This document shows positions 744 to 55,553 of a stretch of 64,000 nucleotides of DNA, in pieces. Where the stretch lies: positions 3,697,888 to 3,761,887 of the forward strand of contig NC_092676.1 of assembly GCF_964355755.1 (NCBI RefSeq), written 5' to 3'. Each line of letters opens with the position of its first letter. The stretch's first letter is position 1. The notes beneath the pieces are model-generated. The model worked only from the letters and a program-made list of their open reading frames with translations. It made no database searches and was not told where the DNA came from. The stretch is from Antedon mediterranea. Its lineage: Eukaryota > Animalia > Echinodermata. Made by a program: the position numbers and the translations under genes.

Positions 744-2372
744 ATGACTGGAGATTGTGATGTTTTCTTCCTGGTTGTATTGACTTTATTGTCTTCATCT
801 TCACTTGCTAATGTTGAGTTTGTTACTAAGCCACCATCAAATGTGACTGTCTATCCAGGTCAGAATGTTTCACTGCCTTGTGTTTTTGAGAATTTAATTC
901 TAAATCACCACATAGTAGAATGGAGTTATTGGCCAAGTTACGAGTATAAGGAGATTATTTCACATGACAGAAATATTTTGTTACCAAGTATTAATAACAT
1001 TGCTGAAAGTTACTCAATTCTAGGTGATGAAATGAATTTCACACTTTTTATCAAAATACCAAGTTCAATAGACTTTAAATCATCTTCTAGTATAAAAACT
1101 GATTATAGATGCTCTGTGTATGAGCTAATCAAAGATGTCCCTATTGAAATAGCAATTTCAACTGTCGTCATACCGAAATATACATTTCATTCTCCAGTGT
1201 GTGGAGCAATCATCAAAACTGTTGTCATGGGAGAAACATTATTATTAGGATGTTGGCCACCAGAGACAGATTATAATGTTACAACAATTTTAACTGTAAA
1301 CAAACAAGTTCTACCTACTACTTATTATAATGGGGGCATTGCTTACAACTTGACTGTAACAAAAGAGTACCATAATGCAGTGTTTGTATGTGAATCGAGA
1401 AGAAAAGAAACAAATGAGACCAGAAGTTGCTCTGTAGGCCCACTCACTGTCAACTACAAACCAGAGATTAACATCACACAGATATCACCACTGGAATACA
1501 TCTGTACTGCAGAGGCTAGACCACCTGTTGATACAACAGTCTGGATTGTGGAATCTAGTGTTCCAGAAGATCACTTTACTATTTCAAATAAGACTTTGAA
1601 ATTTATTAAATTGCCAAAAGTTGGTTCTGAAATAACATGTGAAGCAGGAAATCTTTTGGGAAAAGAATCCAAGTCAATGATCATTCCATTGTTGAACAAT
1701 AATGATGAAGAAAAAATCAAAATTTACATGATCATATTATGCGTTGTAATAACTATTAACATCATTGTTGCAATTGGCGTTTGCTACCTTAAATATAAAA
1801 AGAAACAAAATAATAACAATACTGATGATGACTATGATGATACCACTGAAAGGCAGGAGAGACAAGATGAAGATGAATATCAAATACCTGACAAAAGTAC
1901 CAGTCAACATTACCAATCATTAACATCAGAAACAATGGCTACTAAAAATGATACCACTTATGAAACTGCTTTCACAATTGACAAAGGTCAGAGTGCAAAG
2001 GTCATACAAGATACTTTACCATTCTTGACCTCTATTGATGTACAAAAGATAGAAACTGTATATGATACAACTTATGCTGAATGTGCTGTTAACAAAGAAG
2101 ATGGCACAAAATATGAAGTCATTCCTGATCAGAAGGTAGAAAAGACATCTGGTAAAGTTGATGTGAATAATCCACATGTAAGGAAACGACCTAAAGGACC
2201 TGAATGTGATGAACTTTATATTGAAATCATTGATGACAAAGAAGATATCACAAAACATGAAAGCTGTGAAAACACATCCACAACTAGTGCAGTTTATGTC
2301 AACAATCCATGTGTCAGGAAACAACAGCCTACAGGAACTATATGTGATGAACCTTTATATAGAAATCATTGA
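744..2372 (+). CDS. Single-ORF IgSF type I receptor G1 (SP-V-Ig-Ig-TM-A-type Tyr tail), 542 aa
   Basis: Signal peptide (FFLVVLTLLSSSSLA); V domain with LPC..EW..FTLFI..YRC; two more Cys-paired domains; TM IYMIILCVVITINIIVAIGVCY followed by a basic stretch; tail motifs YDD, YQI, YQSL, YET, YEVI, YVNN. A +1 insertion near 2352 shifts the last few codons. Confidence 0.9.
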   Translation: MTGDCDVFFLVVLTLLSSSSLANVEFVTKPPSNVTVYPGQNVSLPCVFENLILNHHIVEWSYWPSYEYKEIISHDRNILLPSINNIAESYSILGDEMNFTLFIKIPSSIDFKSSSSIKTDYRCSVYELIKDVPIEIAISTVVIPKYTFHSPVCGAIIKTVVMGETLLLGCWPPETDYNVTTILTVNKQVLPTTYYNGGIAYNLTVTKEYHNAVFVCESRRKETNETRSCSVGPLTVNYKPEINITQISPLEYICTAEARPPVDTTVWIVESSVPEDHFTISNKTLKFIKLPKVGSEITCEAGNLLGKESKSMIIPLLNNNDEEKIKIYMIILCVVITINIIVAIGVCYLKYKKKQNNNNTDDDYDDTTERQERQDEDEYQIPDKSTSQHYQSLTSETMATKNDTTYETAFTIDKGQSAKVIQDTLPFLTSIDVQKIETVYDTTYAECAVNKEDGTKYEVIPDQKVEKTSGKVDVNNPHVRKRPKGPECDELYIEIIDDKEDITKHESCENTSTTSAVYVNNPCVRKQQPTGTICDEPLYRNH

Positions 2373-4699: not shown

Positions 4700-5790
4700 A
4701 AATATTGCTACTGTATATTAGAAATAACTATTTCAGCCTACCATGGAGTAATATGATAATAGTTAGTATACCTCCATGCTATTAAAACTCTTCAGACAAT
4801 AATAATGGAATAGAATGGCAGAGGATGAAAAAAAAAACATATTGCAGAGTGCAAGAGTGTAATTTCACTTTTCCTGCTCCAGTGCACAAAGAAATGTTAA
4901 TGCTATGGTTTCTGAACCTGATCAGCTCTCAGCCAATGAGTGAACAGCAGAGTATTACCAATACCAAAAAAAAAACCACAGGTACTTTTATTACTCAAAA
5001 CCTATCACAATAATCTCATGGTTAACTGAGTCTGATCAACTCTCAGCCAATGAGTAAACAGCAGAGGATTATCAATACTAAAAGAATTTTTTGTGTGTGT
5101 GTGTGTGTTATTTTTCACTGTAAACTTGTTGCACATCTCATTGAGACTGTGCCTTTGATTTAAAAGAGATACAATAAAAGTTCAGTTCAGGTACGAACTT
5201 ATCACAATGACCTCATGGTTGACTGAACAACTCTCAGCCAATGAGTGAACAGCAGAAAATTATCAATGTATTAGTTATTACTTCCATTATTTGTTTTCAC
5301 TAGTAGTACTCAATATAGTATTTGTTGGTTTGAAATCAATTATTTCCTTAACTTTCTATACAACAACTTTAAACCACCTGTTTATGAAACAGTCTGGATT
5401 GTGAAAAACAACAATACTCTAAAGTATTAACATTCAGTGAACCATCTGAGGTTGATCACCTGACAAGTGTAACATGCAAAGGGCAAAATGTTATTGGGAC
5501 GGCAATAAAAACATTAAGTATTCAAAAGAAATGTTAATATGTTATAAATGTAAAGATGACAACATTGGAATGCTCTACTAATTGTAAACCTACAATCATT
5601 ATAACAACGTCAGAAAAAAACAAATTATAACTACTAATTATGACGGATTATACATTGGACACAATATTAATGTAACAAAAGGTAAACACAATGCAATGTT
5701 TATTTGTAGTTCAAAGAAGAACATTTCTAAAATTTGTATGACGATTCCAAATCGCAAGATAACGACAACCGTTCCTGTAACACGTAATCA
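4700..5790 (+). pseudogene. D-type receptor remnant: promoter modules plus degraded Ig domains 3-4
   Basis: 5373-5785 aligns by eye with 32921-33373 (ccacctgtt.atgaaacagtctggattgtg, acatgcaaagg.caaaatgttattggg, actaattatgacggattatacattgga) with deletions and stops. Confidence 0.75.
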
Positions 5791-6092
5791 AAATTATATT
5801 ATTTTATATATGCTCAATACTATTAAAAAAAAACCTTTATAAATTTTCTTTGAAAATATTTTTAATATCCTGTTCTATGTTGGGTGTAGTTTTGTATTAA
5901 TGTGTATAGAGCTACAGTATTCTACTGGCAGATGCTTTTACTTATATATCGAAGTTTTAATCTCAATTTGAAATTTAGTATTATTTAGAAAAGTATCTTG
6001 CAGTAAAACGTGTATAATATTCAAATTTTTTTTTAAAAAGTTCCTCGAAATTACACGTACATTGATTTTCCTATGATTCAGGTGAACAGTAT

Positions 6093-7496: not shown

Positions 7497-8309
7497 ATGA
7501 TCAACAACTTTGAAACCAACATGACTGAAGATTGTGATAATGTTTTCTTCCTGGTTGTATTGACTTTATTGTCTTCTTCTTCACTTGCTAATGTTGAGTT
7601 TGTTACTAAGCCACCATCAAATGTGACTGTCTATCGAGGTCAGAGTGTTTCACTGCCTTGTGTTTTTAGGAATTTAATTCCAAATCACCATATAGTAGAA
7701 TGGACTTATTGGCCAAGTTATGAGGAGAATGAGATTATTTCACATGACAGAAATATTTTGTTACCAAGTATTAATAACATTGCTGAAAGGTACTCAATTC
7801 TAGGTGAGGGAATGAATTTTACAATTGCTATCAAAATACCAAGATTAATAGATTTTAAATTATCTTCTAGTATAAGAACTCATTATATATGCTCTGTGTT
7901 AGAACCAAGCAAAGATGTCATAGTAACAGCAACCTCAACTGTTATTATAAAGAAACAACCATTTAGTACTCTAAACAAAGATGAGGAAAACAGTAATAAC
8001 ATTTCAATTATCATCGTTGTAGTTATTGTTGGTTTTGGTATGATTGTTGTCCTCATGATTCTCTGTTTTTCCAGAAAAAAGAAAAGTCAAATAGAAAATA
8101 AAAAAAAAATGAACAAAAATAGTTCTCAGCCAAATACATTAACAACCAACAAACTTGTTTACGATTATGTAGCAGTCACTGAAATCGAGTTAGAAGATTA
8201 TCAGGAAGTGGAGAATGAATTTTACGTTGGCGGTGATATTGTTATCAATGCAAAAAGTAAAACAGAATATGAAAATGTAAACCAATACAACTTAAAGGTC
8301 AGAGACTAA
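7497..8309 (+). CDS. Single-V-domain IgSF receptor G2 (SP-V-TM-shortened B-type tail); start may be 7521
   Basis: V domain followed directly by stalk and TM; tail YDYV, YQEV, YVG, YENV. The homologous rest of the B tail (to ~8677) is out of frame. Confidence 0.85.
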   Translation: MINNFETNMTEDCDNVFFLVVLTLLSSSSLANVEFVTKPPSNVTVYRGQSVSLPCVFRNLIPNHHIVEWTYWPSYEENEIISHDRNILLPSINNIAERYSILGEGMNFTIAIKIPRLIDFKLSSSIRTHYICSVLEPSKDVIVTATSTVIIKKQPFSTLNKDEENSNNISIIIVVVIVGFGMIVVLMILCFSRKKKSQIENKKKMNKNSSQPNTLTTNKLVYDYVAVTEIELEDYQEVENEFYVGGDIVINAKSKTEYENVNQYNLKVRD

Positions 8310-10398
8310 TTGATAATGTACTATATGATGAGCAAGCTACAAGTTTTAAAGAATACGCGGTGAATAGTGGAAGGAATGAAAAAGGACATTTATTCCAGAG
8401 CAAATAAAAGATATTAAGAACTAGAAGAGTATCAGGAAACAGAGAACAACTTATATGTTGGTGGCAATATTGTCAGCAATAGTGAAAGAAATAAAGACAA
8501 TATAAACAGGGTCAGGGACTGATTGACAATTATGATGAGCCAACTACAAGTCATAAAGAAAAGGCGATAAAAAATGGAAAACAAGGAGTAAATATTATTT
8601 ATTCCAAAGTAAATAAACAAGATTATAAAGAATGTGAAAATGAAATATATCAAGGTCCTGATAAATTGTCACAGTAAAATATCAATTAGCATAAGATGAG
8701 AAATAAATGTCATTGCAGAAAATTGTATGTATAGTTATTTAGTATAATGTAGACTTTTTTTACCTTTTAAACATTTTATACTTTGTGTTTTTAAATGTTC
8801 TGTAGGTACTGTACATATACTGCTTCTTCTTCGGGAGGTTTTTACAAATAAATAAAATTATTAGATAAATAATAACCGACTAATATCATTGCATTTTTCA
8901 TTGGTAAACAATATAATTTGTATTGTGTGTAACATTATGAATGGAACTAACCTTAATGTTATGCTATAGTGTATCCTCCTACACTCACTTGGGCAGTAGG
9001 CCAGGCTGAGGCCCAATGAAATTGGTGGTATATTATTGGTTTATAAATTGAAAATTACCATGGGCTTATCTCCAGGTTGGGCTTACACTTGAATCTAAAT
9101 GGTACTTATTACTAATATCTAATTTGTGCAACAAAATAATTGTGTAGAAAACACATTTTTCAGGATTTCTTCTCAGCGTTAACAACTTTACACCAAAATA
9201 ATAAAATATGAAGCTTCTTGATTGGACAGAATGTTGTATTGCAACAGTCATTAAACTTGCTATTGGCAGTTCTTGAAAAAAAAACCGTCTAAACAAATAA
9301 GAATAAATTATATTGTTTAACCAAAAAAAGATTTTCATTTCAAAAAAAGACAATTAAGTATATTTTTACAAAAACTAATTCAGTATTATTTCATTTGTAT
9401 GTATTATTATACAGCATTTAACAGTCACTTCTTTTGAATGTTTGTTTAGCACAAGCAAACTCATTCCTACACAAATAAAAACCAATAAGTTCACTGAACT
9501 AAATACCAGAATTAGAATTTCAAAACTAATATGATGTACTGACAACGAATTCCTTTTTAGTATGAAAACAAAACACTCTATTTTTGTCATATTTTTTTAT
9601 GTAATTATTACCGGAAAGGTAATAATTTTTATTGTGAAATGTTTTTTTTTAAATATACTATATATCTTGTAATCGTCAAAGATAGATTTTAAGTCATTTT
9701 TGCTTGTACTTGGCTATACAAAAGTTTAATAGAATGCTGATGTTCATAATATAACAACAAATTTTGAATATAAAACAAAGAATTGGGAGAAATTATTTTC
9801 CTTATTAAAACAGTGCATATTGCAAGAAAAAACTAAAAATATTACATTTTGTGGGGTGGTAATTGACAAATAATAATAATAAAAACTTACTTATACTCAT
9901 ATATATTCATATTAATATTTTCATTTAAACTTTAATAAAAGGATGAAATGTTTCAATTCTTATTTGGTCATAATTTTCATAATTATCAGAAAAAAACATA
10001 CTATTCTATGAACCCTGCATAGGTACAGATATAAAATGTCATGGTTGAATGGTTTAAACTCTCAACCAATCAGTGTAAAGTTTTAATATTGTTTTAACAA
10101 AGGAAGTACATATATATATATATATTCAAAATCATGCACTCTGGTACGTTATTGTAACACTATTATACAGTAAATACCATAGCACTTGTATAATACTTAA
10201 TAGGAATAACATCAGTTTCACATTCTGAAAAAGTTTCAGCTTAAAATTATTTAAGTATCCAGTACAAAGCCCTTAGGAGCCTGTTGGAAAGTTTTAGAAG
10301 AACATCACACCAGTATTTTGAGTCAGATACAGTGCATCAAGTTGTTTGAAAAGACTTCAATATCTGGTTTACAAGTTTTAATTTTCAACGAAAAAGTT

Positions 10399-12132
10399 AT
10401 GTATAAATACAGTGTTTGCTTCCTTGTGATGTGGATTGCATTGGTTTCTTCTTTTTGTGAGTTTGTTACTAAGCCACCATCAACAGTGACTGTCTATCCA
10501 GGTCAGAATGTTTCACTGCCTTGTGTTTTTGATAAATGTTTACATGAACATCAATACACAGTAGAATGGAGTTATTGGCCAGTCACGTTTGAATCTGCAG
10601 AGATTATTATTATTTCAAATGACAAAAATCTTTTGTTACCAAGTTTTGATCAAATTGCTGAAAGTTACTCAATTCAAGGTTATCGAACGAATTTCACACT
10701 TTTCATCAAAATACCAAGTTTAATTAATTTTAGATTTTCAAGTGTTAGCAGTCAGTATAGATGTTCTGTGTTTGACCCAAGAAACAGTGTCCCTGTTAAA
10801 ATAGCAACTTCAACTGTCATTATGCAGAAACCAACATTTCATTCTCCAGTGTGTAGAAAAATCAAGACAACTGTTGTCATTGGAGAAACATTATCATTAA
10901 GATGGATTTTACTCACCAATAACAGATTATGATGTAACAACAATTTTAACTGTGAACAAACAAGTTCTACCTACAATTATTGCTTACAACTTGACTGTGT
11001 AACAAAAGAGTACCATAATGCAGTGTTTGTATGTGAATCAAGAAGAAAAGAAACAAATGAGACAAGAAGTTGCTCTGTTGGCCCACTCACGGTCAACTAT
11101 AAACCAGAGATTAACATCACACAGATATCACCACTGGAATACATCTGTACTGCAGAGGCTAGACCACCTGTTGATACAACAGTCTGGATTGTGGAATCTA
11201 GTGTTCCAGAAGATCACTTTACTATTTCAAATAAGACTTTGAAATTTACTAAATTGCCAAAAGTTGGTTCTGAAATAACATGTGAAGCAGGCAATCTTTT
11301 GGGAGAAGATTCCAAGTCAATGATCATTCCATTGTTGAACAATAATGATGAAGAAAAAATAAGAATTTACATGATCATATTATGCATTGTTATAACTATT
11401 AACATCATTGTTGCAATTGGCGTTTGCTACCGTAAATATAAAAAGAAACAAAATAATAACATTACTGATGATGACTATGATGATACCACTGAAAGGCAGG
11501 AGAGACAAGATGAAGATGAATATCAAATACCTGACAAAAGTACCAGTCAACATTACCAATCATTAAAATTAGAAAAAGTTGCTACTAATAAAGATACTAC
11601 TTATGAAACTACTTTCACAATTGACAAAGGTCAGAGTGCAAGTGTCATGCCAGATATATACATGAGCTCTATTGATGGTGGACCAAAGATAGAAACTGTG
11701 TATGATACAGCTTATGCTGAATGTGCTGTTAACGAAAAAGATGGCACAAAATATGAAGTCATTCCTGATAAGAATGTAGAAAAGACATCGGGCGAAGTTT
11801 ATGTGAATAATCCACGTGAAAGGAAGCAACAACCTAAAGGACCTGAATGTAATGAACCACATATAGAAATTGTTGTTGACAAACAAGACATTTTTACAAA
11901 ACATGCTGATGTTGAAAACACATCCACACCTAGTGCAGTTTATGTGAATAATCCACATGTCAGGAAACAACAACCTAAAGGACCTGTATGTGATGAACCA
12001 CAAAAAGAAATTGTTGATGACAAACAAGACATCACAAAACATGTTGATGTTGAAAACACTTCCACATCCAGTTCTATTTATGTCAATAATCCGCATGTTA
12101 AAATACAGCCATCTACAAACATTCAGAAATAG
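10399..12132 (+). pseudogene. A-type IgSF receptor G3 with frameshifts in Ig domain 2
   Basis: MYKYSVCF signal peptide and V domain; indels at ~10905-11000 give a stop at 10932; the downstream ORF 11023-12132 encodes the rest, with three YVNNP motifs. Confidence 0.85.
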
Positions 12133-13547: not shown

Positions 13548-13722
13548 GAACAGCATAGGAGTATCAATTAATATGCATTACTTCCATTATTTTTACAAGT
13601 ACCACTAGTACTCATATAGTATTTCCTACAATATATTCATAATGTTGGTCTGAAATCTATAAATGTTATTTCCCTAACTTTAAATTGTCTTTAGAACCAA
13701 CAACTTTCTTGAAGAAACAAAC

Positions 13723-14464
13723 ATGATGCATTCTGGTAATATTTACCTACTGATTGTATTGACTTTATTATCTTTGTCTTCATCATATGATTCAAAGTTT
13801 GTTACTAGGCCATCATCAACATTAATTGTTTTTCAAGGTCAAATTCTTTCTCAATACTAATAATAACACTACTAATTTTGATTATTGTACAGAAGTAATC
13901 TGTTTTATTATTATTATAGTAATTGTCTGTTTATATACACAAAAACAAAGAAAGTTAAATCAAAAAATGAAACTACACTGTACAACCAAACCTTCACAAC
14001 AGGAAGACAAGGAGGAGGATTCAATGGTTTTAAACTAAGCAATGGGAAACATGGACAAGTATCAGGAAACAGAAAATGAAATATACGTAGATGGAAATGA
14101 GGTTGATATTAATCAGTCAATCAGAGCAAACGAATTTGAAGATTTGGATGGATATATAGAAAATGAGAATGAAATATACGTAGATGGAAATGAGGTTGAT
14201 ATTAATCAGCCAATCAGAACGAACGAATTTGAAGTTTTGAATGAATATATAGAAAATGAGAATGAAATATACATAGATGGAAATGAGGTTGATATTAATC
14301 AGCCAATCAGAGTGAACAAATTTGAAGATTTGAAAGGATATATAGAAAATGAGAATGAAATATATGTAGATGGAAATGAGGTCAATATTAATCAGCCAAT
14401 CAGAGTGAACAAATTTGAAGACTTGAATGAATATATAGAAAATGAAATATATCAAGTAACTTAA
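13723..14464 (+). pseudogene. D-type receptor remnant G4: signal peptide joined to TM/tail, Ig domains deleted
   Basis: MMHSGNIYLLIVLTLLSLSSSYDSKFVTRPSSTLIVFQGQ..* then an out-of-frame TM (IIIIVIVCLYTQK), DSMVLN-TAA and a 140-aa open repeat ORF. Confidence 0.75.
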
Positions 14465-16185: not shown

Positions 16186-16995
16186 ATGATCAACAACTTT
16201 GAAATCAACATGACTGGAGATTGTGATAATGTTTTCTTCCTGGTTGTATTGACTTTATTGTCTTCTTCTTCACTTGCTAATGTTGAGTTTGTTACTAAGC
16301 CACCATCAACAGTGACTGTCTATCCAGGTCAGAATGTTTCACTGCCTTGTGTTTTTAGGAATTTAACTCCAACTCACCACATAGTAGAATGGAGTTATTG
16401 GCCAAGTTATGACATCAAGTACAATATTTCAAAGGACAGAACTCTTTTGTTACCAAGTATTGATAATATTGCTGAAAGTTACTCAATTCTAGGTGATGGA
16501 ATGAATTTCACAATTGTTATCAAAATACCAAGTTTATTAGACTTTAAATTATCTTCTAGTATAAGAACTTATTATATATGCTCTGTGTTAGAACCAAGCA
16601 AAGGTGTCATAATAACAGCAACCTCAACTGTTATTATAAAGATACAACCATTTAGTACTCTAAACAAAGATGAGGAAAACAGTAATAACTTTTCAATTAT
16701 TACCGTTGTAGTTATTGTTGGATTTGGTATGATTGTTGTCCTCATGATTCTCTGTTTTTCCAGAAAAAAGAAAAGTCAAATAGAAAATGAAAAACAGAAA
16801 AAAAATAGTTCTCAGCAAAATACATTAACAACCAATAAACTTATTTACGATTACGCCACAGTCACTGAAATCGAGTTAGAAGATTATCAGGAAGTGGAGA
16901 ATGAATTTTACATTGGCGGTGATATTGTTATCAATGCAGAAAGTAAAACAGAATATGAAAATGTAAACCAATACAACTTAAAGGTCAGAGACTAA
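16186..16995 (+). CDS. Single-V-domain IgSF receptor G5, paralogue of G2; start may be 16210
   Basis: Same architecture and same tail truncation (YNLKVRD*) as G2. Confidence 0.85.
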   Translation: MINNFEINMTGDCDNVFFLVVLTLLSSSSLANVEFVTKPPSTVTVYPGQNVSLPCVFRNLTPTHHIVEWSYWPSYDIKYNISKDRTLLLPSIDNIAESYSILGDGMNFTIVIKIPSLLDFKLSSSIRTYYICSVLEPSKGVIITATSTVIIKIQPFSTLNKDEENSNNFSIITVVVIVGFGMIVVLMILCFSRKKKSQIENEKQKKNSSQQNTLTTNKLIYDYATVTEIELEDYQEVENEFYIGGDIVINAESKTEYENVNQYNLKVRD

Positions 16996-19096
16996 TTGAT
17001 AATGTACTATATGATGAGCAAGCTACAAGTTGTAAAGAATACGCGGTGAATAGTGGAAGGAATGAAAAAGGACATTTATTCCAGAGCAAATAAAAGATAT
17101 TATAAAGAACTAGAAGAGTATCAGGAAACAGAGAACAACTTATACGTTGGTGGCAATATTGTCAGCAATAGTGAAAGAAATAAAGACAATATAAACAGGG
17201 TCAGAGACTGATTGACAATTATGATGAGCCAACTACAAGTCATAAAGAAGAGGCGATAAAAAATGGAAAACAAGGAGTAAATATTATTTATTCCAAAGTA
17301 AATAAACAAGATTATAAAGAATGTGAAAATGAATGAAATATATCAAGGTCCTGATAAATTGTCACAGTAAAATATCAATTAGCATAAGATGAGAAATAAA
17401 TGTCATTGCAGAAAATTGTATGTATAGTTATTTAGTATAATGTAGACTTTTTTTACCTTTTGAACATTTTATACTTTGTATTTTTAAATGTTCTGTAGGT
17501 ACTGTACATATACTGCTTCTTCTTTGGGAGGTTTTTACAAATAAATAAAATTATTAGATAAATAATAAAAGACTAATATCATTGCATTTTCCATTGTTAA
17601 ACAAATATAGAATTATATTGTGTGTAACATTATGAATGGAACTAACCTTAATGTTATGCTATAGTGTATCCTCCTACACTCACTTGAGCAGTAGGCCAGG
17701 CCCAATGAAATTGGTGGTATATTATTGGTTTATAAATTGAAAATTACCATGGGCTTATCTCCAGGTTGGGCTTACACTTGAATCTAATTATTACTAATAT
17801 CTAATTTGTGCAACAAAATAATTGTGTAGAAAACACATTTTTCAGGATTTCTTCTCAGCGTTAACAACTTTACACCAAAATAATAAAATATGAAGCTTCT
17901 TGATTGGACAGAATGTTGTATTGCAACAGTCATTAAACTTGCTATTGGCAGTTCTTGAAAAAAAAACCGTCTAAACAAATAAGAATAAATTATATTGTTT
18001 AACCAAAAAAAGATTTTCATTTCAAGAAAAGACAATGAAGTATATTTTTACAAAACTAATTCAGTATTATTTCATTTGTATGTATTATTATACAGCATTT
18101 AACAGTCACTTCTTTTGAATGTTTGTTTAGCACAAGCAAACTCATTCCTACACAAATAAAAACCAATAAGTTCACTGAACTAAATACCAGAATTAGAATT
18201 TCAAAACTAATATGATGTACTGAGAACGAATTCCTTTTTAGTATGAAAACAAAACACTTGTTAATGTTATGTTTTTTTATGTAATTGTTACCGGAAAGGT
18301 AATAATTTTTATTGTGAAATGTTTTTTTTTAAATATACTATATATCTTGTAATCGTCAAAGATAGATTTTAAGTCATTTTTTCTTGTACTTGGCTATACA
18401 AAAGTTTAATAGAATGCTGATGTTCATAATAGATTTGAAGAATTGGGAGAAATTATTTTCCTTATTAAAGCAGTGCATATTGCAAGAAAAAACTAAAAAT
18501 ATAACATTTTGTGGGGTGGCAATTGACAAATAATAATAATAAAAACTTACTTATACTCATATATATATTCATATTAATATTTTCATTTAAACTTCAATAA
18601 TTTAAATTTAATTAATTTACCTAATTTAACTTTAATAAAAGGATGAAATGTTTCAATTCTTATTTGGTCATCATTTTCATAATTATCAGAAAAAAAACAT
18701 ACTATTCTATGAAACCTGCATAGGTACAGATATAAAATGTCATGGTTGAATGGTTTTAACTCTCAGCCAGTCAGTGTAAAGTTTTAATATTGTTTTAACA
18801 AAGGAAGTACATATATATATATATTCAAAATCATGCACTCTGGTACGTTATTGTAACACTATTATACAGTAAATACCATAGCACTTGTATAATACTTAAT
18901 AGGAATAACATCAGTTTCACATTCTGAAAAAGTTTCAGCTTAAAATTATTTAAGTATCCAGTACAAAGCCCTAGGAGCCTGTTGGAAAGTTTTAGAAGAA
19001 CATCACACCAGTATTTTGAGTCAGATACAGTGCATCAAGTTGTTTGAAAAGACTTCAATATCTGGTTTACAAGTTTTAATTTTCAACGAAAAAGTT

Positions 19097-21274
19097 ATGT
19101 ATAAATACAGTGTTTGCTTCCTTGTGATGTGGATTGCATTGGTTTCTTCTTTTTGTGAGTTTGTTACTATGCCACCATCAACAGTGAATGTATATCCAGG
19201 TCAGAATGAATGTTTCACTGCCTTGTGTTTTTGGTACCGGTAAATGTTTACATGAACATCAATACACAGTAAAATGGAGTTATTGGCCAGTCAAGTTTGA
19301 AGCTACAGAGATTATAACTATTTCAAATGACAAAAATCTTTTGTTACTAAGTTTTGATAACATTGCTGAAAGTTACTCAATTCAAGGTTATTTCAAGAAT
19401 TTCACACTTTTCATCAAAATACCAAGTTTAATTAATTTTAGATCTTCCAGTGTTAGCAGTCAGTATAGATGTTCTGTGTTTGAGCCAAATGGTAAAGGTG
19501 TCCCTGTTAAAACAGCAACTTCAACTGTCATTATACAGAAACCAAAATTTAGTAATCCAATTTGTGGAATAATCATCACTCTTGTTGTCATTGGACAAAC
19601 ATTATCATTAGAATGTTACTCACCAGTAAGAGACTATGATGTAACAACAATTTTAACTGTAAACAAACAAGTTCTACCTACTTATTATAATGGGGGCATT
19701 GCTTACAACTTGACTGTAACAAAAGAGTACCATAATGCAGTGTTTGTATGTGAATCGAGAAGAAAAGAAACAAATGAGACCAGAAGTTGCTCTGTTGGCC
19801 CACTCACTGTCAACTATAAACCAGAGATTAACATCACACAGATATCACCACTGGAATACATCTGTACTGCAGAGGCTAGACCACCTGTTGATACAACAGT
19901 CTGGATTGTGGAATCTAGTGTTCCAGAAGATCACTTTACTATTTCAAATAAGACTTTGAAATTTATTAAATTGCCAAAAGTTGGTTCTGAAATAACATGT
20001 GAAGCAGGAAATCTTTTGGGAAAAGAATCCAAGTCAATGATCATTCCATTGTTGAACAATAATGATGAAGACAAAATCAGAATTTACATGATCATATTAT
20101 GCATTGTTATAACTAATAACATCATTGTTGCAATTGGCGTTTGCTACCGTAAACATAAAAAGAAACAAAATAATAACATTACTGATGATGACTATGATGA
20201 TACCACTGTTCCTGAAAGGCAAGAAAGACAAGATGAAGATGAAAAATATCAAATAACTGACAAAAGCACCAGTCAACATTACCAATCATTAACATCAGAA
20301 AGATTGGCTACTAAATATGATACCACTTATGAAACTACTCTCACAATTGACAAAGGTCAGAGTGCAAGGGTTATGCCAGATGCTTTTCCATTCATGACCT
20401 CTATTGATGGTGGACAAAAGATAGAAACTGTATATGATACAGCTTATGCTGAATGTGCTGTTAACGAAAAAGATGACAAAAAATATGAAGTCATTCCTGA
20501 TCAGAATGTAGAAAAGACATCTGATGAAGTTTATGTGAATAATCCACATGTCAGGAAACAACAACCTAAAGGACCTGAATGTGATGAACCACAAATAGAA
20601 ATTGTTGTTGACAAACAAGACATCACAAAACATGCTGATGTTGAAAACACTTCCACATCCAGTTCTGTATATGTTAACAATCCACATGTCAGGAAACAAC
20701 AACCTAAAGGACCTGAATGTTATGAACCACAAATAGAAATTGTTGTTGACAAACAAGACATCACAAAACATGCTGATGTTGAAAACACTTCCACATCCAG
20801 TTCTGTATGTTAACAATCCACATGTCAGGAAACAACAACCTAAAGGTCCTGAATGTGATGAACCACAAATAAAAATTGTTGTTGACAAACAAGACATCAC
20901 AAAACATGCTGATGTTGAAAACACTTCCATATCCAGTTCTGTATATGTTAACAATCCACATGTCAGGAAACAACAACCTAAAGGACCTGAATGTAATGAA
21001 CCACAAATAGAAATTGTTGTTGACAAACAAGACATCACAAAACATGCTGATGTTGAAAACACTTCCACATCCAGTTCTGTTTATGTCAATAATCCACATG
21101 TCAGGAAGCAACAACCTAAAGGATCCTGTATGTGATGAACCACAAAAAGAAATTGTTGTTGACAAACAAGACATCACAAAACATGCTGATGTTGAAAATA
21201 CTTCCACATCCAGTTCTATTTATGTCAATAATCCGCATGTTAGGAAACAGCCATCTACAAACATTCAGAAATAG
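19097..21274 (+). pseudogene. A-type IgSF receptor G6 with a 4-nt duplication frameshift and expanded tail repeats
   Basis: cagaatgaatgttt at ~19203 (aatg duplicated) breaks the V domain start; further frameshifts at ~20807 and ~21123. Confidence 0.85.
20530..21250 (+). repeat. 138-nt (46-aa) coding tandem repeat, about 5 units plus a partial unit
   Basis: Unit VYVNNPHVRKQQPKGPECDEPQIEIVVDKQDITKHADVENTSTSSS; period 138 (aatccacatg at 20541 and 20679). Confidence 0.9.
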
Positions 21275-32139: not shown

Positions 32140-33666
32140 ATGACTGGATATTGTGATAATATTTACTTCTTGCTTGCACTGACTTTAGTAATGTTTTCAT
32201 CGTCACTTGCTGTTGAGTTCAATTCTAAGCCACCATCAACGGTATCTGTCTATCCAGGTCAGAATGTTTCACTGTCTTGTGTTTTTAGGAATTTAATTCC
32301 CAATCACCACATAGTAGAATGGAGTTATTGGTCAAGTTACGAGAATAACCAGATTATTTCAAATGACAGAAATATTTTGTTACCAAGTATTGATAACATT
32401 GCTAAAAGTTACTCAATTGTAGGTGATGGAATGAATTTCACACTTTTTATCAAAATACCAAGTATAACAGATTTTGGAATTTCTGGTGTACATACACAGT
32501 ATATATGTTCTGTGTTAGAACCAAGCAAGATCGGTTTCGTTGTCCCTGTTACAGCAACTTCAACTGTCATTATAAAGAAACATACATTTAATTCTCCAAT
32601 ATGTGGAGGAATACACAAAACTGTTGTCATTGGAGAAACATTATTATTCGGATGCTTCCCACCAGTGACAAACTATGATGTAACAACAACTTTAAAATTG
32701 AACAAACAAGTTTTACCTATTTATAATTGGTTAATCAATGCTTACATGTTGACTGTAACAAAAGAAGACCATGATGCAGTGTTTGTATGTGAATCAAGAA
32801 GAAAAGAAACAAATGAGACCAGAAGTTGCTCTGTTGGCCCACTCACTGTCAACTACAAACCAGAGATTAACATCACACAAATATCACCAATGGAATATCA
32901 CTGTACTACAGAGGCTAGACCACCTGTTAATGAAACAGTCTGGATTGTGGAAGAAAGCAATACCTTAAATTACAGTATTAACATTTCAAATAACGTATTA
33001 ACATTCAGTGAACCACCTGAAGTTGATCAGCTAACAAGTGTAACATGCAAAGGACAAAATGTTATTGGGACGGCAACAAAAACATTAAGTGTACAAAAGA
33101 AATGTCAATTTGTTGAACCGGATTGTAACTCTCAATATGTTATAAATGTAAATACGACAACATTGGAATGTACTACTGATTGTAAACCTGCAATTATCAT
33201 AACAACGCCAGAAATAAAACAAATTATAACTACTAATTATGACGGATTATACATTGGACACAATATTATTGTAACAAAAGGTGAACACAATGCAACGTTT
33301 ATTTGTAGTTCAAGGAAGAACATTTGTAACACGAGTCCAATACGTGAGATAACGACAACCGTTCTTGTAACACGCAGCAGCGCAGATATTGATCAATACA
33401 CGCAGTTTAGTATACAAGAACTAATAACCACTGTAAATAACATGTTAATCAAAAACGAGGATGAAAAACAAGATAATAATAGTAACTGGATGAATATAAT
33501 AATTTTGGTTATTGCAGTAAGTTTGGTATGCTGTTTTATCCTTATTCTTATAATACTTGTTTGTTTATATACACAAAATAAAAAGAAAGTTAAATCAAAA
33601 AATGAAACTACGACCAAACCTTCACAACAGGAAGACAAGAAGGAGGATTCAATGGTTTTAAACTAA
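32140..33666 (+). CDS. D-type IgSF receptor G7 (SP-V-Ig-Ig-Ig-stalk-TM-short tail), 508 aa
   Basis: The fourth domain (TLECTT..NIIVTKGEHNATFICSSRK) resembles domain 2; TM IIILVIAVSLVCCFILILIILVCL. Confidence 0.88.
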   Translation: MTGYCDNIYFLLALTLVMFSSSLAVEFNSKPPSTVSVYPGQNVSLSCVFRNLIPNHHIVEWSYWSSYENNQIISNDRNILLPSIDNIAKSYSIVGDGMNFTLFIKIPSITDFGISGVHTQYICSVLEPSKIGFVVPVTATSTVIIKKHTFNSPICGGIHKTVVIGETLLFGCFPPVTNYDVTTTLKLNKQVLPIYNWLINAYMLTVTKEDHDAVFVCESRRKETNETRSCSVGPLTVNYKPEINITQISPMEYHCTTEARPPVNETVWIVEESNTLNYSINISNNVLTFSEPPEVDQLTSVTCKGQNVIGTATKTLSVQKKCQFVEPDCNSQYVINVNTTTLECTTDCKPAIIITTPEIKQIITTNYDGLYIGHNIIVTKGEHNATFICSSRKNICNTSPIREITTTVLVTRSSADIDQYTQFSIQELITTVNNMLIKNEDEKQDNNSNWMNIIILVIAVSLVCCFILILIILVCLYTQNKKKVKSKNETTTKPSQQEDKKEDSMVLN

Positions 33667-33669
33667 GCA

Positions 33670-33918
33670 ATGGGAAACATGGACAAGTATCAGGAAACAG
33701 AAAATGAAATATACGTAGATGGAAATGAGGTTGATATTAATCAGCCAATCAGAGTGAACAAATTTGAAGATTTGGATGGATATATAGAAAATGAGAATGA
33801 AATATACGTAGATGGAAATGAGGTCTATATTAATCAGTCTATCAGAGCAAACAAATTTGAACATTTGGATAGATATATAGAAAATGAGAATGAAATATAC
33901 GAAGGAATCGGAAAATGA
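33670..33918 (+). other. In-frame ENEIY-repeat tail ORF directly after the G7 stop codon
   Basis: aac TAA gca ATG gga; same frame as G7; two 93-nt units. Confidence 0.7.
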
Positions 33919-34436: not shown

Positions 34437-36170
34437 ATGACTGGAGATTGTGATAATGGTTTCTTCGTGGTTGTATTGACTTTATTGTCTTCATCTTCAC
34501 TTGCTAATGTTGAGTTTGTTACTAGGCCACCATCAACAGTGACTGTCTATCCAGGTCAGAATGTTTCACTGCCTTGTGTTTTTAGGAATTTAATTCAGAA
34601 TCAGCACAAAGTAGTATGGAGTTATTGGCCAAGTATGTTAAAGATTATTTCAATTGACAGAAATCTCTCATTAACAAGTATTGATAACATTGCTGAAAGT
34701 TACTCAATTCTAGGTGATGGAATGAATTTCACACTTTTTATCAAAATATCCAGAACAATAGATTTTGAATCATCTTCTAATATTAGAAATGATTTTAGAT
34801 GTTCTGTGTTTGAACTAAGCCAAACTTTCCCTTTTAAACTAACAAATCAAGGTGTCCCTGTTGACAGAGCACCTTCAACTGTTATTATACAACCAACATT
34901 TAGTTATCCAGTGTGTGTACAGATCAACACCACTGTTGTCGTTGGAGAAACATTATCATTAAGATGTTACTCACCAGTAACAGATTATGATGTAACAACA
35001 ATTTTAACATTGAACAAACAAGTTCTACCTACAATTTATTATAATGGGTTAATTACTTACAACTTGACTGTAACAAAAGAGTACCATAATGCAGTGTTTG
35101 TATGTGAATCAAGAAGAAAAGAAACAAATGAAACAAGAAACTGCTCTGTTGGCCCACTCACTGTCAACTACAAACCAGAGATTAACATCACACAGATATC
35201 ACCACTGGAATACATCTGTACAGCAGAGGCTAGACCACCAGTTAATGAAATTAACTGGAATGTGGAGCCAAAAATTGCTAGAAAACATTTCAATATTTCA
35301 AAAGATTCATTAACATTGACTAAAAAATTGAAAGCTGATGCTGTTATCAAATGTTGGGCAGAAAATACAGTTGGAAAAACCAAAGAAAAATTTATCATTT
35401 ATTCTAACTTTACTAGTCAGAATCAAGATACTCCAAATGAAAACAATGGTAACATGATAGCTATTATCATTATGGCCAGTTTTGCATTTTTGATGGTTAA
35501 TATTTTTGTTATTGTCCTCATGATTCTCTGTTTTTTCCGTCAAAAGCGATTCAAAAAAGAAAAGAAAAAGCAGAACAAAAATAGTTCTCAGCCAAATAAA
35601 TTAAAAAATAAAAAACATGTTTACGATTACGCCACAGTCACTGAAATCGACTTAGAAGATTATCAGGAAATGGAGAATGAATTGTACGTTGGCGGCGATC
35701 TTGTTATCAATACAGAAAGTAAAACAGAAAATGAAAATCTAAACCAATTTGAAGGTCAGAGACAGGAGATTGACAATTTACTGTATGATGAGCCAACTAC
35801 AAGCTGTAAAGAAGACGCGATGAATAGTGGAAGGAATGAAAAAGGAAACCAAGGAGGACATTTTTATTCCAAAGCAAATAACAAATATTATAAAGAACTA
35901 GAAGATTATCAGGAAACAGAGAACAAATTGTACGTTGGCAGCGATATTGTTAGCAAAAGTGAAAGAAGTAAAGACAATAGAGACCAATTTCAGGGTCAGA
36001 GACAGATTAACAATGTACTATATGATGATCAGCCAACTACAAGTCGTAAAGAAGAGGCGATGAATAATGGAAAACAAAGAGTAAATATTATTTATTCCAA
36101 AGTGAATAAACAAGATTATAAAGAATGTGAAAATGAAATATATCAAGGTTCTGATATATTGTCAAAGTAA
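34437..36170 (+). CDS. Intact B-type IgSF receptor G8 (SP-V-Ig-Ig-TM-long Tyr tail with ITIM-consensus IIYSKV), 577 aa
   Basis: Uninterrupted ORF; internally duplicated tail (EDYQE.EN.LYVG twice, LYD..EP/QPTTS twice); AATAAA at ~36197. Confidence 0.92.
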   Translation: MTGDCDNGFFVVVLTLLSSSSLANVEFVTRPPSTVTVYPGQNVSLPCVFRNLIQNQHKVVWSYWPSMLKIISIDRNLSLTSIDNIAESYSILGDGMNFTLFIKISRTIDFESSSNIRNDFRCSVFELSQTFPFKLTNQGVPVDRAPSTVIIQPTFSYPVCVQINTTVVVGETLSLRCYSPVTDYDVTTILTLNKQVLPTIYYNGLITYNLTVTKEYHNAVFVCESRRKETNETRNCSVGPLTVNYKPEINITQISPLEYICTAEARPPVNEINWNVEPKIARKHFNISKDSLTLTKKLKADAVIKCWAENTVGKTKEKFIIYSNFTSQNQDTPNENNGNMIAIIIMASFAFLMVNIFVIVLMILCFFRQKRFKKEKKKQNKNSSQPNKLKNKKHVYDYATVTEIDLEDYQEMENELYVGGDLVINTESKTENENLNQFEGQRQEIDNLLYDEPTTSCKEDAMNSGRNEKGNQGGHFYSKANNKYYKELEDYQETENKLYVGSDIVSKSERSKDNRDQFQGQRQINNVLYDDQPTTSRKEEAMNNGKQRVNIIYSKVNKQDYKECENEIYQGSDILSK

Positions 36171-38446: not shown

Positions 38447-40098
38447 ATGTATAAATACAGTGTTTGCTTCCTGGTGTTGTGGATTTCATTGGTTTCAAAG
38501 ATATTTTGTAATGTTGGGTTTGTTACTAGGCCACCATCAACAGTGACTGTCTATCCAGATCAGAATGTTTCACTGCCTTGTGTTTTTAATAATTTAATTA
38601 CAAATCACTACATAGTAGAATGGACTAGTTCGCAGGGTAACATAGAACATCCAGATATTATTTCAAATGACAGAAATATTTTGTTACCAAGTACTGATAA
38701 CATTACTGAAAGTTACTCAATTCTAGGTGATGGCATGAATTTCACACTTTTTATCAAAATACCAAGTTTAATAATAGATTTTGGATCAGCTTCTAGTATC
38801 AGCACTCTTTATGCATGTTCTGTGTTTGACGCAAAAGAGAAAGATGTCCCTGTTATAACATCAACTTCAATTGTCATTATACAACCGATATTTAGAGATC
38901 CAGTTTGTTTAAAAATCAACAATACTGTTGTCATTGGAGAAACATTATCATTAGGATGTTACTCATCAGAGACATATTATGAAGTTAAAACAATTTTAAA
39001 AGTGAACAAACAAGTTTTACATACTAATTATTATGTTGGGTCCTTCAATGTTTACAACTTGACAGTAACAAAGGAACACCATAATGCAGTGTTTGTATGT
39101 GAATCAAGAAGAAAAGAAACAAATGAGACCAGAAGTTGCTCTGTTGGCCCACTCACTGTCGGCCCACTCACTGTCAACTACAAACCAGAGATTAACATCA
39201 CACAAATATCACCACTAGCATTCCACTGTACTGCAGAGGCTAGACCACCTGTTAATGAAACAGTCTGGATTATAGAATCTAGTGTTCCAAAAGATCACTT
39301 TACTATTTTATATGGGATTTTGATATTTACTGAATTGCCAAAAGTTGTTTTTGAAATAACATGTGAAGCAGAAAATCTTGTGGGAGAAGATTCCAAGTCA
39401 ATGATCATTCCATTGTTGAAAAATAATTATGAAGAAAAAATAAGAATTTACTTGATCACATTATGCGTTGTTATAACTATTAACATCCTTTTTGCAATTG
39501 TACTTTGCTACCGTAAATATAAAAAGAAACAAAATAATAACATTACTGATGATGACTATGGTGATACCACTGAAAGGCAAGAAAGACAAAATGAAGATGA
39601 ATATCAAATACCTGACAAAAGTACCAGTCAACATTACCAATCATTAACATCAGAAACAATGACTGCCAATAATGATACCACTGAAAGGCAAGAAAGACAA
39701 GATGAAGATGAATATCAAATACCTGACAAAAGTACCAGTCAACATTACCAATCATTAAAATTAGAAAAAGTTGCTACTAATAACGATACTACTTATGAAC
39801 TACTTTCACAATTGACAAAGGTCAGAGTGCAAGGGTCATGCCAGATATATACATGAGCTCTATTGATGGTGGACAAAAGATAGAAACTGTGTATGATACA
39901 GCTTACGCTGAATGTGCTGTTAACAGAGAAGATGGCACAAAACATGAAGTAATTCCTGATCAGAATGAAGAAAACACAGCTGGCGAAGTTTATGTGAATA
40001 ATCCACGTGTCAGGAAACAACAAGGACCTGTGATGAACTTTATATTGAAATCATTGATGAAAAATAGGATGGCACAAAACAGAGTGAAGAATATCTAA
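38447..40098 (+). CDS. A-type IgSF receptor G9; ectodomain and TM intact, tail frameshifted (stop at 39856)
   Basis: MYKYSVCF leader; in-frame 15-nt duplication GPLTVGPLTV; duplicated DTTERQERQ..YQIPDKSTSQHYQSL; a single A is lost at ~39798 relative to G3. Confidence 0.8.
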
Positions 40099-50496: not shown

Positions 50497-52204
50497 ATGA
50501 CTGGAGATTGTAATGTTTTCTTCCTGGTTGTATTGACTTTATTGTCTTCATCTTCACTTGCTGATGTTGAGTTTGTTACTAGGCCACCATCAACATTGAC
50601 TGTCTATCCAGGTCAGAATGTTTCACTGCCTTGTGTTTTTAGGAATTTAATTCAGAATCAGCACAAAGTAGTATGGAGTTATTGGCAAAGTATGTTTAAG
50701 ATTATTTCAGTTGACAGAAATCTCTCATTAACAAGTATTAATAACATTGCTGAAAGTTACTCAATTCTAGGTGATGGAATGAATTTCACACTTTTTATCA
50801 AAATATCCAGAACAATAGATTTTGAATCATCTTCTAATATTAGAAATGATTTTAGATGTTCTGTGTTTGAACTAAGCCAAACTTTCCCTTTTAAAATAAC
50901 AAATCAGAATGTCCCTGTTGACAGAGCACCTTCAACTGTTATTATACAACCAACATTTAGTTATCCAGTGTGTGTACAGATCAACACCACTGTTGTCGTT
51001 GGAGAAACATTATCATTAAGATGTTACTCACCAGTAACAGATTATGATGTAAGAACAATTTTAACATTGAAAAAACAAGTTCTACCTACAATTTATTATA
51101 ATGGGTTAATTACTTACAACTTGACTGTAACAAAAGAGTACCATAATGCAGTGTTTGTATGTGAATCAAGAAGAAAAGAAACAAATGAAACAAGAAACTG
51201 CTCTGTTGGCCCACTCACTGTCAACTACAAACCAGAGATTAACATCACACAGATATCACCACTGGAATACATCTGTACAGCAGAGGCTAGACCACCAGTT
51301 AATGAAATTAACTGGAATGTGGAGCCAAAAATTGCTAGAAAACATTTCAATATTTCAAAAGATTCATTAACATTGACTAAAAAATTGAAAGCTGATGCTG
51401 TTATCAAATGTTGGGCAGAAAATACAGTTGGAAAAACCAACTAACTTTACTAGTCAGAATCAAGATACTCCAAATGAAAACAATGGTAACATGATAGTTA
51501 TTATCATTATGGCCAGTTTTGCATTTTTGATGGTTAATATTTTTGTTATTGTCCTCATGATTCTCTGTTTTTTCCGTCAAAAGCGATTCAAAAAAGAAAA
51601 GAAAAAGCAGAACAAAAATAGTTCTCAGCCAAATAAATTAAAAAATGAAAAACATGTTTACGATTACGCCACAGTCACTGAAATCGACTTAGAAGATTAT
51701 CAGGAAATGGAGAATGAATTGTATGTTGGCGGCGATCTTGTTATCAATACAGAAAGTAAAACACAAAATGAAAATCTAAACCAATTTGAAGGTCAGAGAC
51801 GGGTGATTGACAATGTACTATATGATGAGCCAACTACAAGTAGTAAAGAAGACGCGATGAATAGTGGAAGGAATGAAAAAGGAAACCAAGGAGGACATTT
51901 TTATTCCAAAGCAAATAACAAATATTATAAAGAACTAGAAGATTATCAGGAAACAGAGAATAAATTGTACATTGGTGGTGATATTGTTAGCAATAGTGAA
52001 AGAAGTAAAGACAATAGAGACCAATTTCAGGGTCAGAGACAGATTAACAATGTACTATATGGTGAGCCAACTACAAGTCGTAAAGAAGAGGCGATGAATA
52101 ATGGAAAACAAAGAGTAAATATTATTTATTCCAAAGTGAATAAACAAGATTATAAAGAATGTGAAAATGAAATATATCAAGGTTCTGATATATTGTCAAA
52201 GTAA
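50497..52204 (+). pseudogene. B-type receptor G10: a 20-nt deletion gives a stop at 51444 after Ig domain 3 (pseudogene or secreted form)
   Basis: Near-identical to G8 but lacks agaaaaatttatcatttatt; TM and tail are open in another frame (51395-52204). Confidence 0.85.
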
Positions 52205-54056: not shown

Positions 54057-55553
54057 ATGTATAAATACAGTGTTTGCTTCCTGGTGTTGTGGATTTCATT
54101 GGTTTCAAAGATATTTTGTAATGTTGAATTTGTTACTAGGCCACCATCAACAGTGACTGTCTATCCAGGTCAGAGTGTTACACTGCCTTGTGTTTTTGAT
54201 GACAAATTAATTCTAGATCACCACAAAGTAGAATGGACTTATTCTCAAACTGACTTTGAGGCTCCAGATATTATTTCAAATGACAACAATATTTTGTTAA
54301 CAAGTATTGACAACATTGCTGAAAGTTACTTAATTGTAGGTGATGAAAAGAATTTCACACTTTTTATCAAAATACCAAGATTAATAGATTTTAAATCATC
54401 TTCTAGTATTAGCACTTATTATAGATGTTCTGTGCTTGAACCAAGCAAAGATGTCCCTGTTGAAACAGCAACTTCAACTGTTATTATACAATCAATATTT
54501 AGAGATCCAGTTTGTTTAAAAATTAAAAAAACTGTTGTCATTGGAGAAACATTATCATTAGGATGTTACTCACCAGAGACATATTATGACGTTAAAACAA
54601 TTTTAAAAGTGAACAAACAAGTTTTACATACTAATTATTATGTTGAGACCACCAATGTTTACAACTTGACTGTCACAAAGGAATGTCATGATGCAGTGTT
54701 TGTATGTGAATCAAGAAGAAAAAAAACAAATGAAATCAGAAATTGCTCTGTTGGCCCACTCACTGTCAACTATAAACCAGAGATTTACATCACACAAATA
54801 TCACCAATGGAATACATCTGTACTGCAGAGGCTAGACCACCTGTTAATCAAACAGTCTGGATTATAGAGCCCAACCTTCCCCAGGAAAATTATGAGATAT
54901 CTAATAATACATTAATATTGACTGAAAAGTTAAAGGCTGATTCAGTTATAAAATGCTGGGCAGAAAATTCAGTTGGACCAACAACAAAAAGTTTCAACTT
55001 TGATCAAATAAATGATAAAAATGAAGAAACGGGCAAAAAAAATTATATTTTCCTTATTATTGTTGCAGTCAGTGTTGGAATTGTTGTTGTAATAAGTATA
55101 CTATTGATGATCTATTTTTTAAGAAAAAAAACATTGCATCGAGAAAATAAAACAACAAAACAAGGCGCGTCACAAAATAAAATAAAAAGCAAAGGTAAAG
55201 AAGAACTTGTTTACGACTACGCTACAATAGACGTTACAGATCAGGAAACCGAGAACAGTAATATAAGCAGTAATAAAAGAAACAATGGGCCATCTAAAGA
55301 ACTTAACGATAAGAAAAAGAAACAACACACCTATTCTGAAGTGGATGAGGTGGAAAGTGATAACATACCTGTTTATTCTGAACTAAACAAACCAGATTAT
55401 AAGGAATGTGAAAATGAGATATATGAGGGTCCGACCGGAGTGGCTGATTCTAAAGAGGAAGGAGTACAAGATAATGTAGATGTTTACTCCAAAGTGAACA
55501 AACCAGATTACAAAGAGTGTGAAAATGAGATATATCAAGGTCCTGAAATGTAA
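54057..55553 (+). CDS. Intact IgSF receptor G11 (A-type leader and V domain, B-like domain 3 and tail)
   Basis: MYKYSVCF leader; KLKADSVIKCWAEN; tail YDYA, TYSEV, VYSEL, VYSKV and YKECENEIY twice. Confidence 0.92.
   Translation: MYKYSVCFLVLWISLVSKIFCNVEFVTRPPSTVTVYPGQSVTLPCVFDDKLILDHHKVEWTYSQTDFEAPDIISNDNNILLTSIDNIAESYLIVGDEKNFTLFIKIPRLIDFKSSSSISTYYRCSVLEPSKDVPVETATSTVIIQSIFRDPVCLKIKKTVVIGETLSLGCYSPETYYDVKTILKVNKQVLHTNYYVETTNVYNLTVTKECHDAVFVCESRRKKTNEIRNCSVGPLTVNYKPEIYITQISPMEYICTAEARPPVNQTVWIIEPNLPQENYEISNNTLILTEKLKADSVIKCWAENSVGPTTKSFNFDQINDKNEETGKKNYIFLIIVAVSVGIVVVISILLMIYFLRKKTLHRENKTTKQGASQNKIKSKGKEELVYDYATIDVTDQETENSNISSNKRNNGPSKELNDKKKKQHTYSEVDEVESDNIPVYSELNKPDYKECENEIYEGPTGVADSKEEGVQDNVDVYSKVNKPDYKECENEIYQGPEM

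Follow-up and report, generated by a model that had tools for sequence, protein, structure and literature searches.

Paired immunoglobulin (Ig) receptors are already known from vertebrates and, judged by motif, from Botryllus and Hydractinia. In PMC3533184, they are defined by similar ectodomains, clustered genes, an inhibitory member with an inhibitory motif (ITIM) and an activating member with a charged transmembrane (TM) residue. At a feather star locus, we found one small gene cluster in which two tail classes, A and B/G, share similar ectodomains, and in which the ligand-binding region appears to have undergone gene conversion. The A class does not have the classical activating form (short tail, charged TM residue), and the canonical ITIM occurs in the B lineage only, with a conserved YSx(V/L) core. 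Gene conversion of ligand-binding exons is also the argument used for the paired Ceacams of Xenopus in PMC5112662. As in CEACAM1/CEACAM3 and the Xenopus Ceacams, the feather star genes are clustered and their N-terminal V domains are probably kept alike across classes by conversion, and the putative activating member would resemble CEACAM3, which according to the same paper carries ITAM-like and YxN motifs of its own and no charged TM residue; members of the CEACAM3 type are a known exception to the classical activating form. Unlike the CEACAMs, to which no sequence homology was found, the feather star genes are single-exon, the apparent conversion reaches from domain 1 (D1) into the middle of D3 and sometimes includes the promoter, and the putative inhibitory tail carries NxxY and non-canonical YSxV motifs instead of a conserved ITIM/ITSM.

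CD200R inhibits without an ITIM, through the motif EEDExxPYxxYxxKxNxxY and via Dok2-RasGAP; its last two tyrosines are eight residues apart, its Asn is conserved, Ile or Leu stands at -1, and its Pro is not conserved and is dispensable (PMC8007030). Botryllus FcoR (PMC12582321) and Hydractinia Alr (10.1101/2022.03.04.482883) resemble our genes as clustered invertebrate Ig families whose members carry ITIM and ITAM/hemITAM motifs beside tyrosine motifs that have no explanation yet, and DVYSKV in the feather star gene G fits core-2 of FcoR, which lies on the partner of an activating receptor. These families differ from the feather star genes in being multi-exon, in switching motifs by splicing or alleles and in being genetically tied to allorecognition, and Alr also in its Fn3-like folds and canonical ITAMs. 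No homology of the feather star genes to FcoR or Alr was seen. Echinoderm KirrelL, compared by its description in PMC8903837, is likewise an Ig type I protein of an intronless gene; unlike the feather star genes, this gene is conserved and skeletogenic. By sequence, the nearest outgroup is formed by crinoid CADM-like and kirre-like V-C-C proteins (24-33% identity), whose tails are without ENEIY and YQSL blocks.

We found no paired Ig receptors reported for echinoderms, and no description of this family, in the echinoderm and crinoid Ig receptor literature within the scope of our search, from which subscription papers were mostly excluded, and supplements or gene tables could list these genes. 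To our knowledge, no self/non-self recognition genes are known in echinoderms. We consider the paired architecture alone, that is, similar ectodomains on two unrelated tyrosine-rich tails, to be quite probable. The full mechanism, in which the B/G tail would damp the cell and the A tail would activate it, is given a probability of roughly 45%. If true, the locus would fill a gap between cnidarians and chordates, would provide single-exon, easily cloned candidates for echinoderm self/non-self recognition, and would suggest that inhibition of the PTB/Dok type is either ancient or was reached several times as an alternative to ITIMs.

Organization of the locus

The window, meaning the whole 64-kb stretch that was analyzed, is AT-rich animal DNA (~30% GC). 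Ten full or near-full single-exon Ig-TM copies and several remnants lie on its + strand, span 56 kb and are mostly ordered as C-B-A modules, and a segmental duplication of 8.7 kb was detected (7314-12098 versus 16006-20825, 93%). Three of the ten copies, A744, B34437 and G54057 ("G11"), are intact with a full tail; the rest are frameshifted or truncated, including three A copies and one long B copy that carry frameshifts. The copies and remnants are as follows.

34437..36170, + strand: gene B, intact single-exon type I receptor of 577 aa with signal peptide, V-C-C Ig domains, TM helix and B-class tail
50497..52204, + strand: near-copy with 95% DNA identity to B and a frameshift near 51440
7521..8680, + strand: short B copy with V domain only and TM; a frameshift cuts the tail after the proximal block
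16210..17370, + strand: second short B copy, frameshift identical to that of the 7521..8680 copy
54057..55553, + strand: gene G, intact, 498 aa, B/G-class tail carrying two terminal blocks
744..2372, + strand: gene A744, an intact chimera of 542 aa that joins a B-type upstream region and leader to an A-class tail
10399..12132, + strand: A-class copy A10400, frameshift in D2
19097..21274, + strand: A-class copy A19090, frameshifted, YVNN repeats expanded
38447..40098, + strand: A-class copy A38447, with two frameshifts in the tail, near 39797 and near 40030
32140..33666, + strand: gene C (C32140), four Ig-like units, TM and a tyrosine-free 31-aa tail ending at TAA 33664-33666
33667..33918, + strand: ENEIY array of three repeats, open and in frame behind the C stop
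13702..14464, + strand: C remnant with the same TAA at 14036-14038, then five ENEIY repeats
1..340, + strand: end of a C-type array of ENEIY repeats that the window edge truncates, containing one stop and one frameshift
5370..5840, + strand: C-type ectodomain remnant

The broken copies and the copy turnover are consistent with birth-and-death evolution. The one-base gap at 39797 in A38447 is filled in the contigs of all four sequencing runs covering the region, and it may be an assembly lesion or a haplotype lesion, or the run contigs may derive from paralogs. In two C-type copies (33664-33918 and 14036-14464), an identical in-frame TAA precedes an open ENEIY array of three or five 31-codon repeats. 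This stop is either a recent lesion spread by duplication or the end of a tail-less form with possible read-through; an intron skipping it was rejected, as the adjacent GT..AG spans 13 bases and is too short. In the short B copies at 7521-8680 and 16210-17370, shared tail indels remove the terminal YSKV/ENEIY block. The tail of A19090 contains (20529-21257) an expanded array of ~138-base units with YVNN in each, and unit number differs among the A copies.

Between the modules, we observed retroelements at 24500-27474 (+), 28350-30634 (-), 41157-45255 (+) and 48887-49495 (+). RVT_1 matches were found at 26153, 29873 and 42334, and an endonuclease domain accompanies the one at 42334. Next to the minus-strand reverse transcriptase, a weak match to an integrase SAM-like domain suggests a DIRS-type element. 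A tandem array with a period of ~62 bases occupies 46655-48123, and 36918-37519 and 40229-40500 showed very high contig depth in four of four runs, which marks them as high-copy repeats.

Shared ectodomains on two classes of tail

The extracellular and membrane features of gene B are as follows.

34503..34892, + strand: D1, V-type Ig with canonical B-F strand cysteines, diversified and likely ligand-binding
34893..35399, + strand: D2 and D3; the class boundary of the homogenised region lies at ~35245, inside D3
35457..35525, + strand: TM helix, uncharged, with one central Asn

The AlphaFold2 model of this ectodomain, built on a 38-row alignment (pLDDT 87), contains three all-beta domains, and Pfam gave only sub-threshold Ig matches for the gene. 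The best structural matches found by Foldseek were the V-C-C ectodomains of nectin/Necl proteins (TM score ~0.5, ~15% identity). C25 and C100 of D1 are nearly invariant and are located on strands B and F. The V domain of Siglecs and CD22 lacks the canonical F-strand cysteine, and Siglec membership was rejected on C25 and C100; Atlas feature matches to CD22/Siglec clusters are leads only. Nectins and Necls carry a C-terminal PDZ/afadin motif. The feather star genes have their V-C-C ectodomain, and nectin/Necl orthology was rejected, as no nectin is among the named sequence matches and the tails end in tyrosine blocks.

The dN/dS ratio was 1.08 in D1 (CI 0.74-1.65, not significantly above 1), 0.66 in D2 and 0.49 in distal D3. 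The most variable residues of D1 fall in the BC, CC', F and FG elements, and a test for positive selection on the GFCC' face showed a dN/dS no higher there than elsewhere.

The close homologs outside the window are six proteins: four from Anneissia japonica, which are probably two pairs of neighbours, one from Antedon mediterranea, and the ENA protein P0005. The closest named relatives are crinoid and are labelled "uncharacterized". The distant matches that were sampled are crinoid and hemichordate proteins labelled CADM-like, kirre-like or nephrin-like, with other tails. A larger family of related three-Ig proteins (P0012-P0053), several of them crinoid and mostly labelled kirre-like or CADM-like, shares the tail motif P-x-V-Y-F/Y-E-P-K/R-D ... 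W-x-R-S/T-x-G-x-Q-V-P.

The nectin-like fold and the names of the distant relatives speak for the alternative that both classes are positive or modulatory adhesion-signaling receptors, like nectin, CADM or KirrelL, which would act in tissue contact, fusion or regeneration and whose outputs would differ without differing in sign. It gains further from echinoderm kirrelL, an Ig gene without introns that serves cell fusion (PMC8903837), and from PTB sites that can activate: in PMC2150770, the Y1062 PTB site of RET binds Dok-4/5, which enhance signaling, so that the presence of a PTB site does not in itself imply inhibition, and PMC7260276 reports that the PTB docking protein FRS2 exists in sea urchin. 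Against it stands the identity of only ~15% to nectins. A conserved adhesion gene would also not be expected to turn over rapidly, to have a D1 dN/dS near 1, to be homogenised across classes or to leave so many broken copies; we regard this alternative as rather unlikely.

The paired architecture itself rests on the comparison of tails with ectodomains. Distinct tail classes had been proposed in the earlier note, and we found the A and B/G tails to be unrelated (z -0.3, -0.5) on shared ectodomains. Four crinoid tails match B/G only (z 8-17) and P0005 matches A only (z 10-11), which suggests that both tail classes predate the divergence of these ectodomains. P0005 is the sole A-type protein known outside the window, with none seen among the named Anneissia and Antedon proteins. 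A search of longer proteins for the A TM and tail found none among 317 candidates, being a weak search that also missed P0005, and none of the 37 pattern matches from a metagenome scan was related.

In the D1-D2 tree, all 7 window copies formed one branch against the foreign proteins (100/100), A38447 and G were sisters (100/99), and an A-tail clade was rejected (AU p 2.4e-5 with P0005, 5.6e-6 without). The trees omit the outgroup rows P0009, P0012 and P0013, in which the split motif is absent; P0004 is in the second D1-D2 tree and missing from the first, and P0006 and A10400 are without usable D1-D2. Across classes, DNA identity was 76-92% in D1 and 81-92% in D2. Between A and B/G, it stayed at 0.77-0.94 up to B codon 270 and then fell to 0.75, 0.59 and 0.46, whereas within A it remained 0.90-0.94. 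The ectodomain from D1 to mid-D3 thus clusters by species and mixes across classes, and the pattern breaks off sharply near 35245. A744 and B are 92% alike in their upstream regions, and G and A38447 are 97% alike in theirs; G has an A-type upstream region, leader and D1-D2 on a B/G-class tail, which makes it the reciprocal chimera to A744. We infer that recurrent conversion and unequal crossing-over best explain the D3 break and the reciprocal chimeras. The D3 tree was poorly resolved and placed Anneissia B-tailed proteins among A-like D3s, and D3 is class-specific only within this locus.

The earlier note had seen no charged residue in any TM helix. This holds for the helix core: in 8/10 copies, the best 23-residue hydrophobic window contains no D/E/K/R. 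It does not hold for the edge, since the window of two A copies begins with I-R-I and has Arg at its outer limit. The expectation drawn from it, that signaling would be tail-intrinsic and coupling of the DAP12/FcRgamma style unlikely, agrees with our results, and DAP12-type coupling was rejected on the uncharged cores. The central Asn, which could promote pairing of helices, is present in the A and long-B helices, whereas G, C, short B and the foreign homologs lack it.

Tyrosine motifs of the two tails

The B tail (35538-36167) has 210 aa with 14 tyrosines and contains three related blocks.

35622..35687, + strand: proximal block YDYATV ... YQEMENELY, which proteins of Anneissia and of Antedon mediterranea also conserve
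35862..35933, + strand: internal repeat of the block with FYSKA, YYKEL and YQETENKLY
36087..36143, + strand: terminal block IIYSKV-NKQD-YKECENEIY, with YSxV and Y-x4-N-x-I-Y (NxxY), the most conserved part of the tail

All motifs quoted earlier for B were found, namely IIYSKV (36087-36104), YKEL (within 35886-35900), ENELY, ENKLY and ENEIY, as were TYSEV, VYSEL and VYSKV in G11 (54057-55553), a gene that lies outside the region 35540..36170 to which the earlier note was attached. N-x-[ILV]-Y occurs 6 times in the B tail where 0.23 would be expected, and for Y-x4-N-x-[IL]-Y the count is 3 with an expectation of 0.009 (p=1e-4), both patterns having been picked after seeing the sequence of an internally repeated tail. 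The residues conserved after YSx(V/L) are D-Y-K-E-C-E-N-E-I-Y-[QE]-G, and those conserved proximally are YDYA[TA][VI] ... Y-Q-E-x-E-N-E-[IL]-Y. In the alignment of six terminal blocks, N(-3) and I(-1) never vary and the acidic -4 and -2 positions show one change each. The invariance modestly favours an NxxY site of PTB type over a site that is no more than an acidic kinase target, two readings that are compatible with each other. What had been described as acidic ENE(I/L)Y sites is better read as NxxY docking sites of PTB type, so that B itself is likely adaptor-recruiting.

These sites resemble CD200R1 in an ITIM-independent Y-x4-N-x-(I/L)-Y with acidic residues upstream and no need for Pro. 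The CD200R-type Tyr at -8 is present in 12/16 blocks, whose N and I/L were preselected by the search pattern; K/R at -5 is found in 4/16, and PY at -12/-11 is absent, with an upstream Tyr at -16 instead. The feather star motif, unlike that of CD200R1, is repeated 2-5 times, and the receptors have three Ig domains. CD200R1 is not among the sequence matches or fold matches listed. The likeness is probably due to convergence; it is a working resemblance and not membership.

The YSxV sites bear on the alternative that B/G are classical ITIM receptors recruiting SHP/SHIP through IIYSKV-type sites, with A recruiting Grb2. IIYSKV does fit the ITIM consensus, as had been claimed. The canonical form, however, is confined to the B lineage and is within chance against residue shuffles (p=0.33 loose, 0.16 strict), as are the three YxxPhi motifs of the B tail (p=0.29). 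At seven homologous sites, the -2 residue is I in B; G has D and P there, Anneissia has Q twice and Y once, and Antedon mediterranea has H, so that this position of [ILVS]xYxx[ILV] fits at 1/7 sites and is not conserved. For classical ITIMs speak the Y-[SA]-x-[VL] core, kept at 6/7 of these sites (the seventh is YFQL), the proximal YA[TA][VI] site, YxN in 4/4 A copies and P0005, and the FcoR alleles, which carry ITIM-like motifs with odd -2 residues in PMC12582321. Against them, NxxY as the most enriched element would be left unexplained, and the C-type arrays repeat this element alone. On balance, a classical ITIM system appears unlikely.

Tyrosine conservation in the B class was measured with Tyr masked during alignment, against four foreign tails. 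Tyrosines of the B class were identical in the foreign tails at 23/33 sites versus 145/413 for other residues, where foreign tails and pairs are not independent and single-pair p values range from 0.006 to 0.84. Gly (11/15) and Cys (4/4) were as conserved in the same comparison. Between B and short B, changed codons were 0/13 for Tyr versus 50/180 for others (p 0.017), and between B and G they were 2/8 versus 86/128 (p 0.023). These results indicate that tyrosines of the B/G class are conserved above their neighbours, the outcome that the earlier note needed. The A class as a whole gave the opposite outcome, which the earlier note had named as refuting its reading, with no Tyr excess among window copies (13/136 versus 221/2225 pairwise sites, broken copies included).

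The A tails have ~190-230 aa, and YVN, YQSL and YEVI were all found in them as quoted. The motifs of A744 are as follows.

1878..1922, + strand: YQIP-x7-YQSL, spaced like an ITAM and non-canonical in its first half; P0005 has it too
2106..2306, + strand: TKYEVI (ITSM pattern), LYIEI and YVNN (Grb2 pattern)

The earlier reading had overlooked the ITAM-spaced YQIP half of the first motif. EDEYQIP-x7-YQSL is present in A744, A10400, A38447 (twice) and P0005, and a YQIT variant in A19090, so that the YQI(P/T)-x7-YQSL pair is kept in 4/4 A copies and P0005. Compared with the ITAM consensus (D/ExxYxxL/I x6-8 YxxL/I; PMC5112662), the pair has the acidic lead-in, the spacer and the second YxxL and departs at the first +3 position, where L/I is replaced by P in four sequences and T in one. 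YVN occurs in every A copy (4/4) and in P0005, at p=0.05-0.32 per A tail against residue shuffles. TKYEVI is intact in 2/4 A copies, as is YIEI in 2/4; the YVN/YLEL match of A tails to P0005 was not significant (154/2000 shuffles).

Proposed signaling by the paired tails

In the paired mechanism, clustering by ligand would lead to phosphorylation of tail tyrosines by Src-family kinases, whose consensus the acidic E-x-I-Y context fits. On B/G, Dok-type PTB adaptors would then dock on the NxxY sites, and an SH2 phosphatase on the YSxV and YAxV sites, both damping the cell. On A, the ITAM-spaced tyrosine pair may dock a kinase of the Syk/Shark type and YVN may dock Grb2, leading to activation. 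The two classes would thereby have opposite signs and an immune or self/non-self role, and C and short B would provide tail-less or half-tailed forms beside the full receptors. The context of RET Y1062 presumably matches ENKLY of the B tail. The sign of signaling is the weak step of this mechanism: the Dok-4/5 proteins bound by RET promote signaling, and DVYSKV of G is identical to the FcoR core-2 that lies on the partner of an activating receptor. It is possible, though doubtful, that feather stars evolved such a paired system independently of vertebrates, from an intronless adhesion-type Ig gene, with a CD200R-like Dok/PTB inhibitory arm and a C-B-A locus whose activating, inhibitory and tail-less forms exchange promoters and recognition domains. 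Such a locus would be the echinoderm equivalent of KIR/Siglec-type loci and might serve allorecognition or encode counter-receptors to pathogens.

The view that the cluster is mostly decaying duplicated DNA, with motifs as by-products of Asn/Glu/Tyr-rich repeats in an AT-rich genome, could draw on the ~30% GC, the 3/10 copies intact with a full tail and a B-tail dN/dS of 0.75 (CI 0.47-1.32), but is very improbable given a terminal block nearly invariant in proteins only 33-41% identical overall, B-class Tyr codons unchanged where 28% of other codons changed, cysteines and fold that are kept (pLDDT 87), and an A-tail dN/dS of 0.59 (CI 0.40-0.89).
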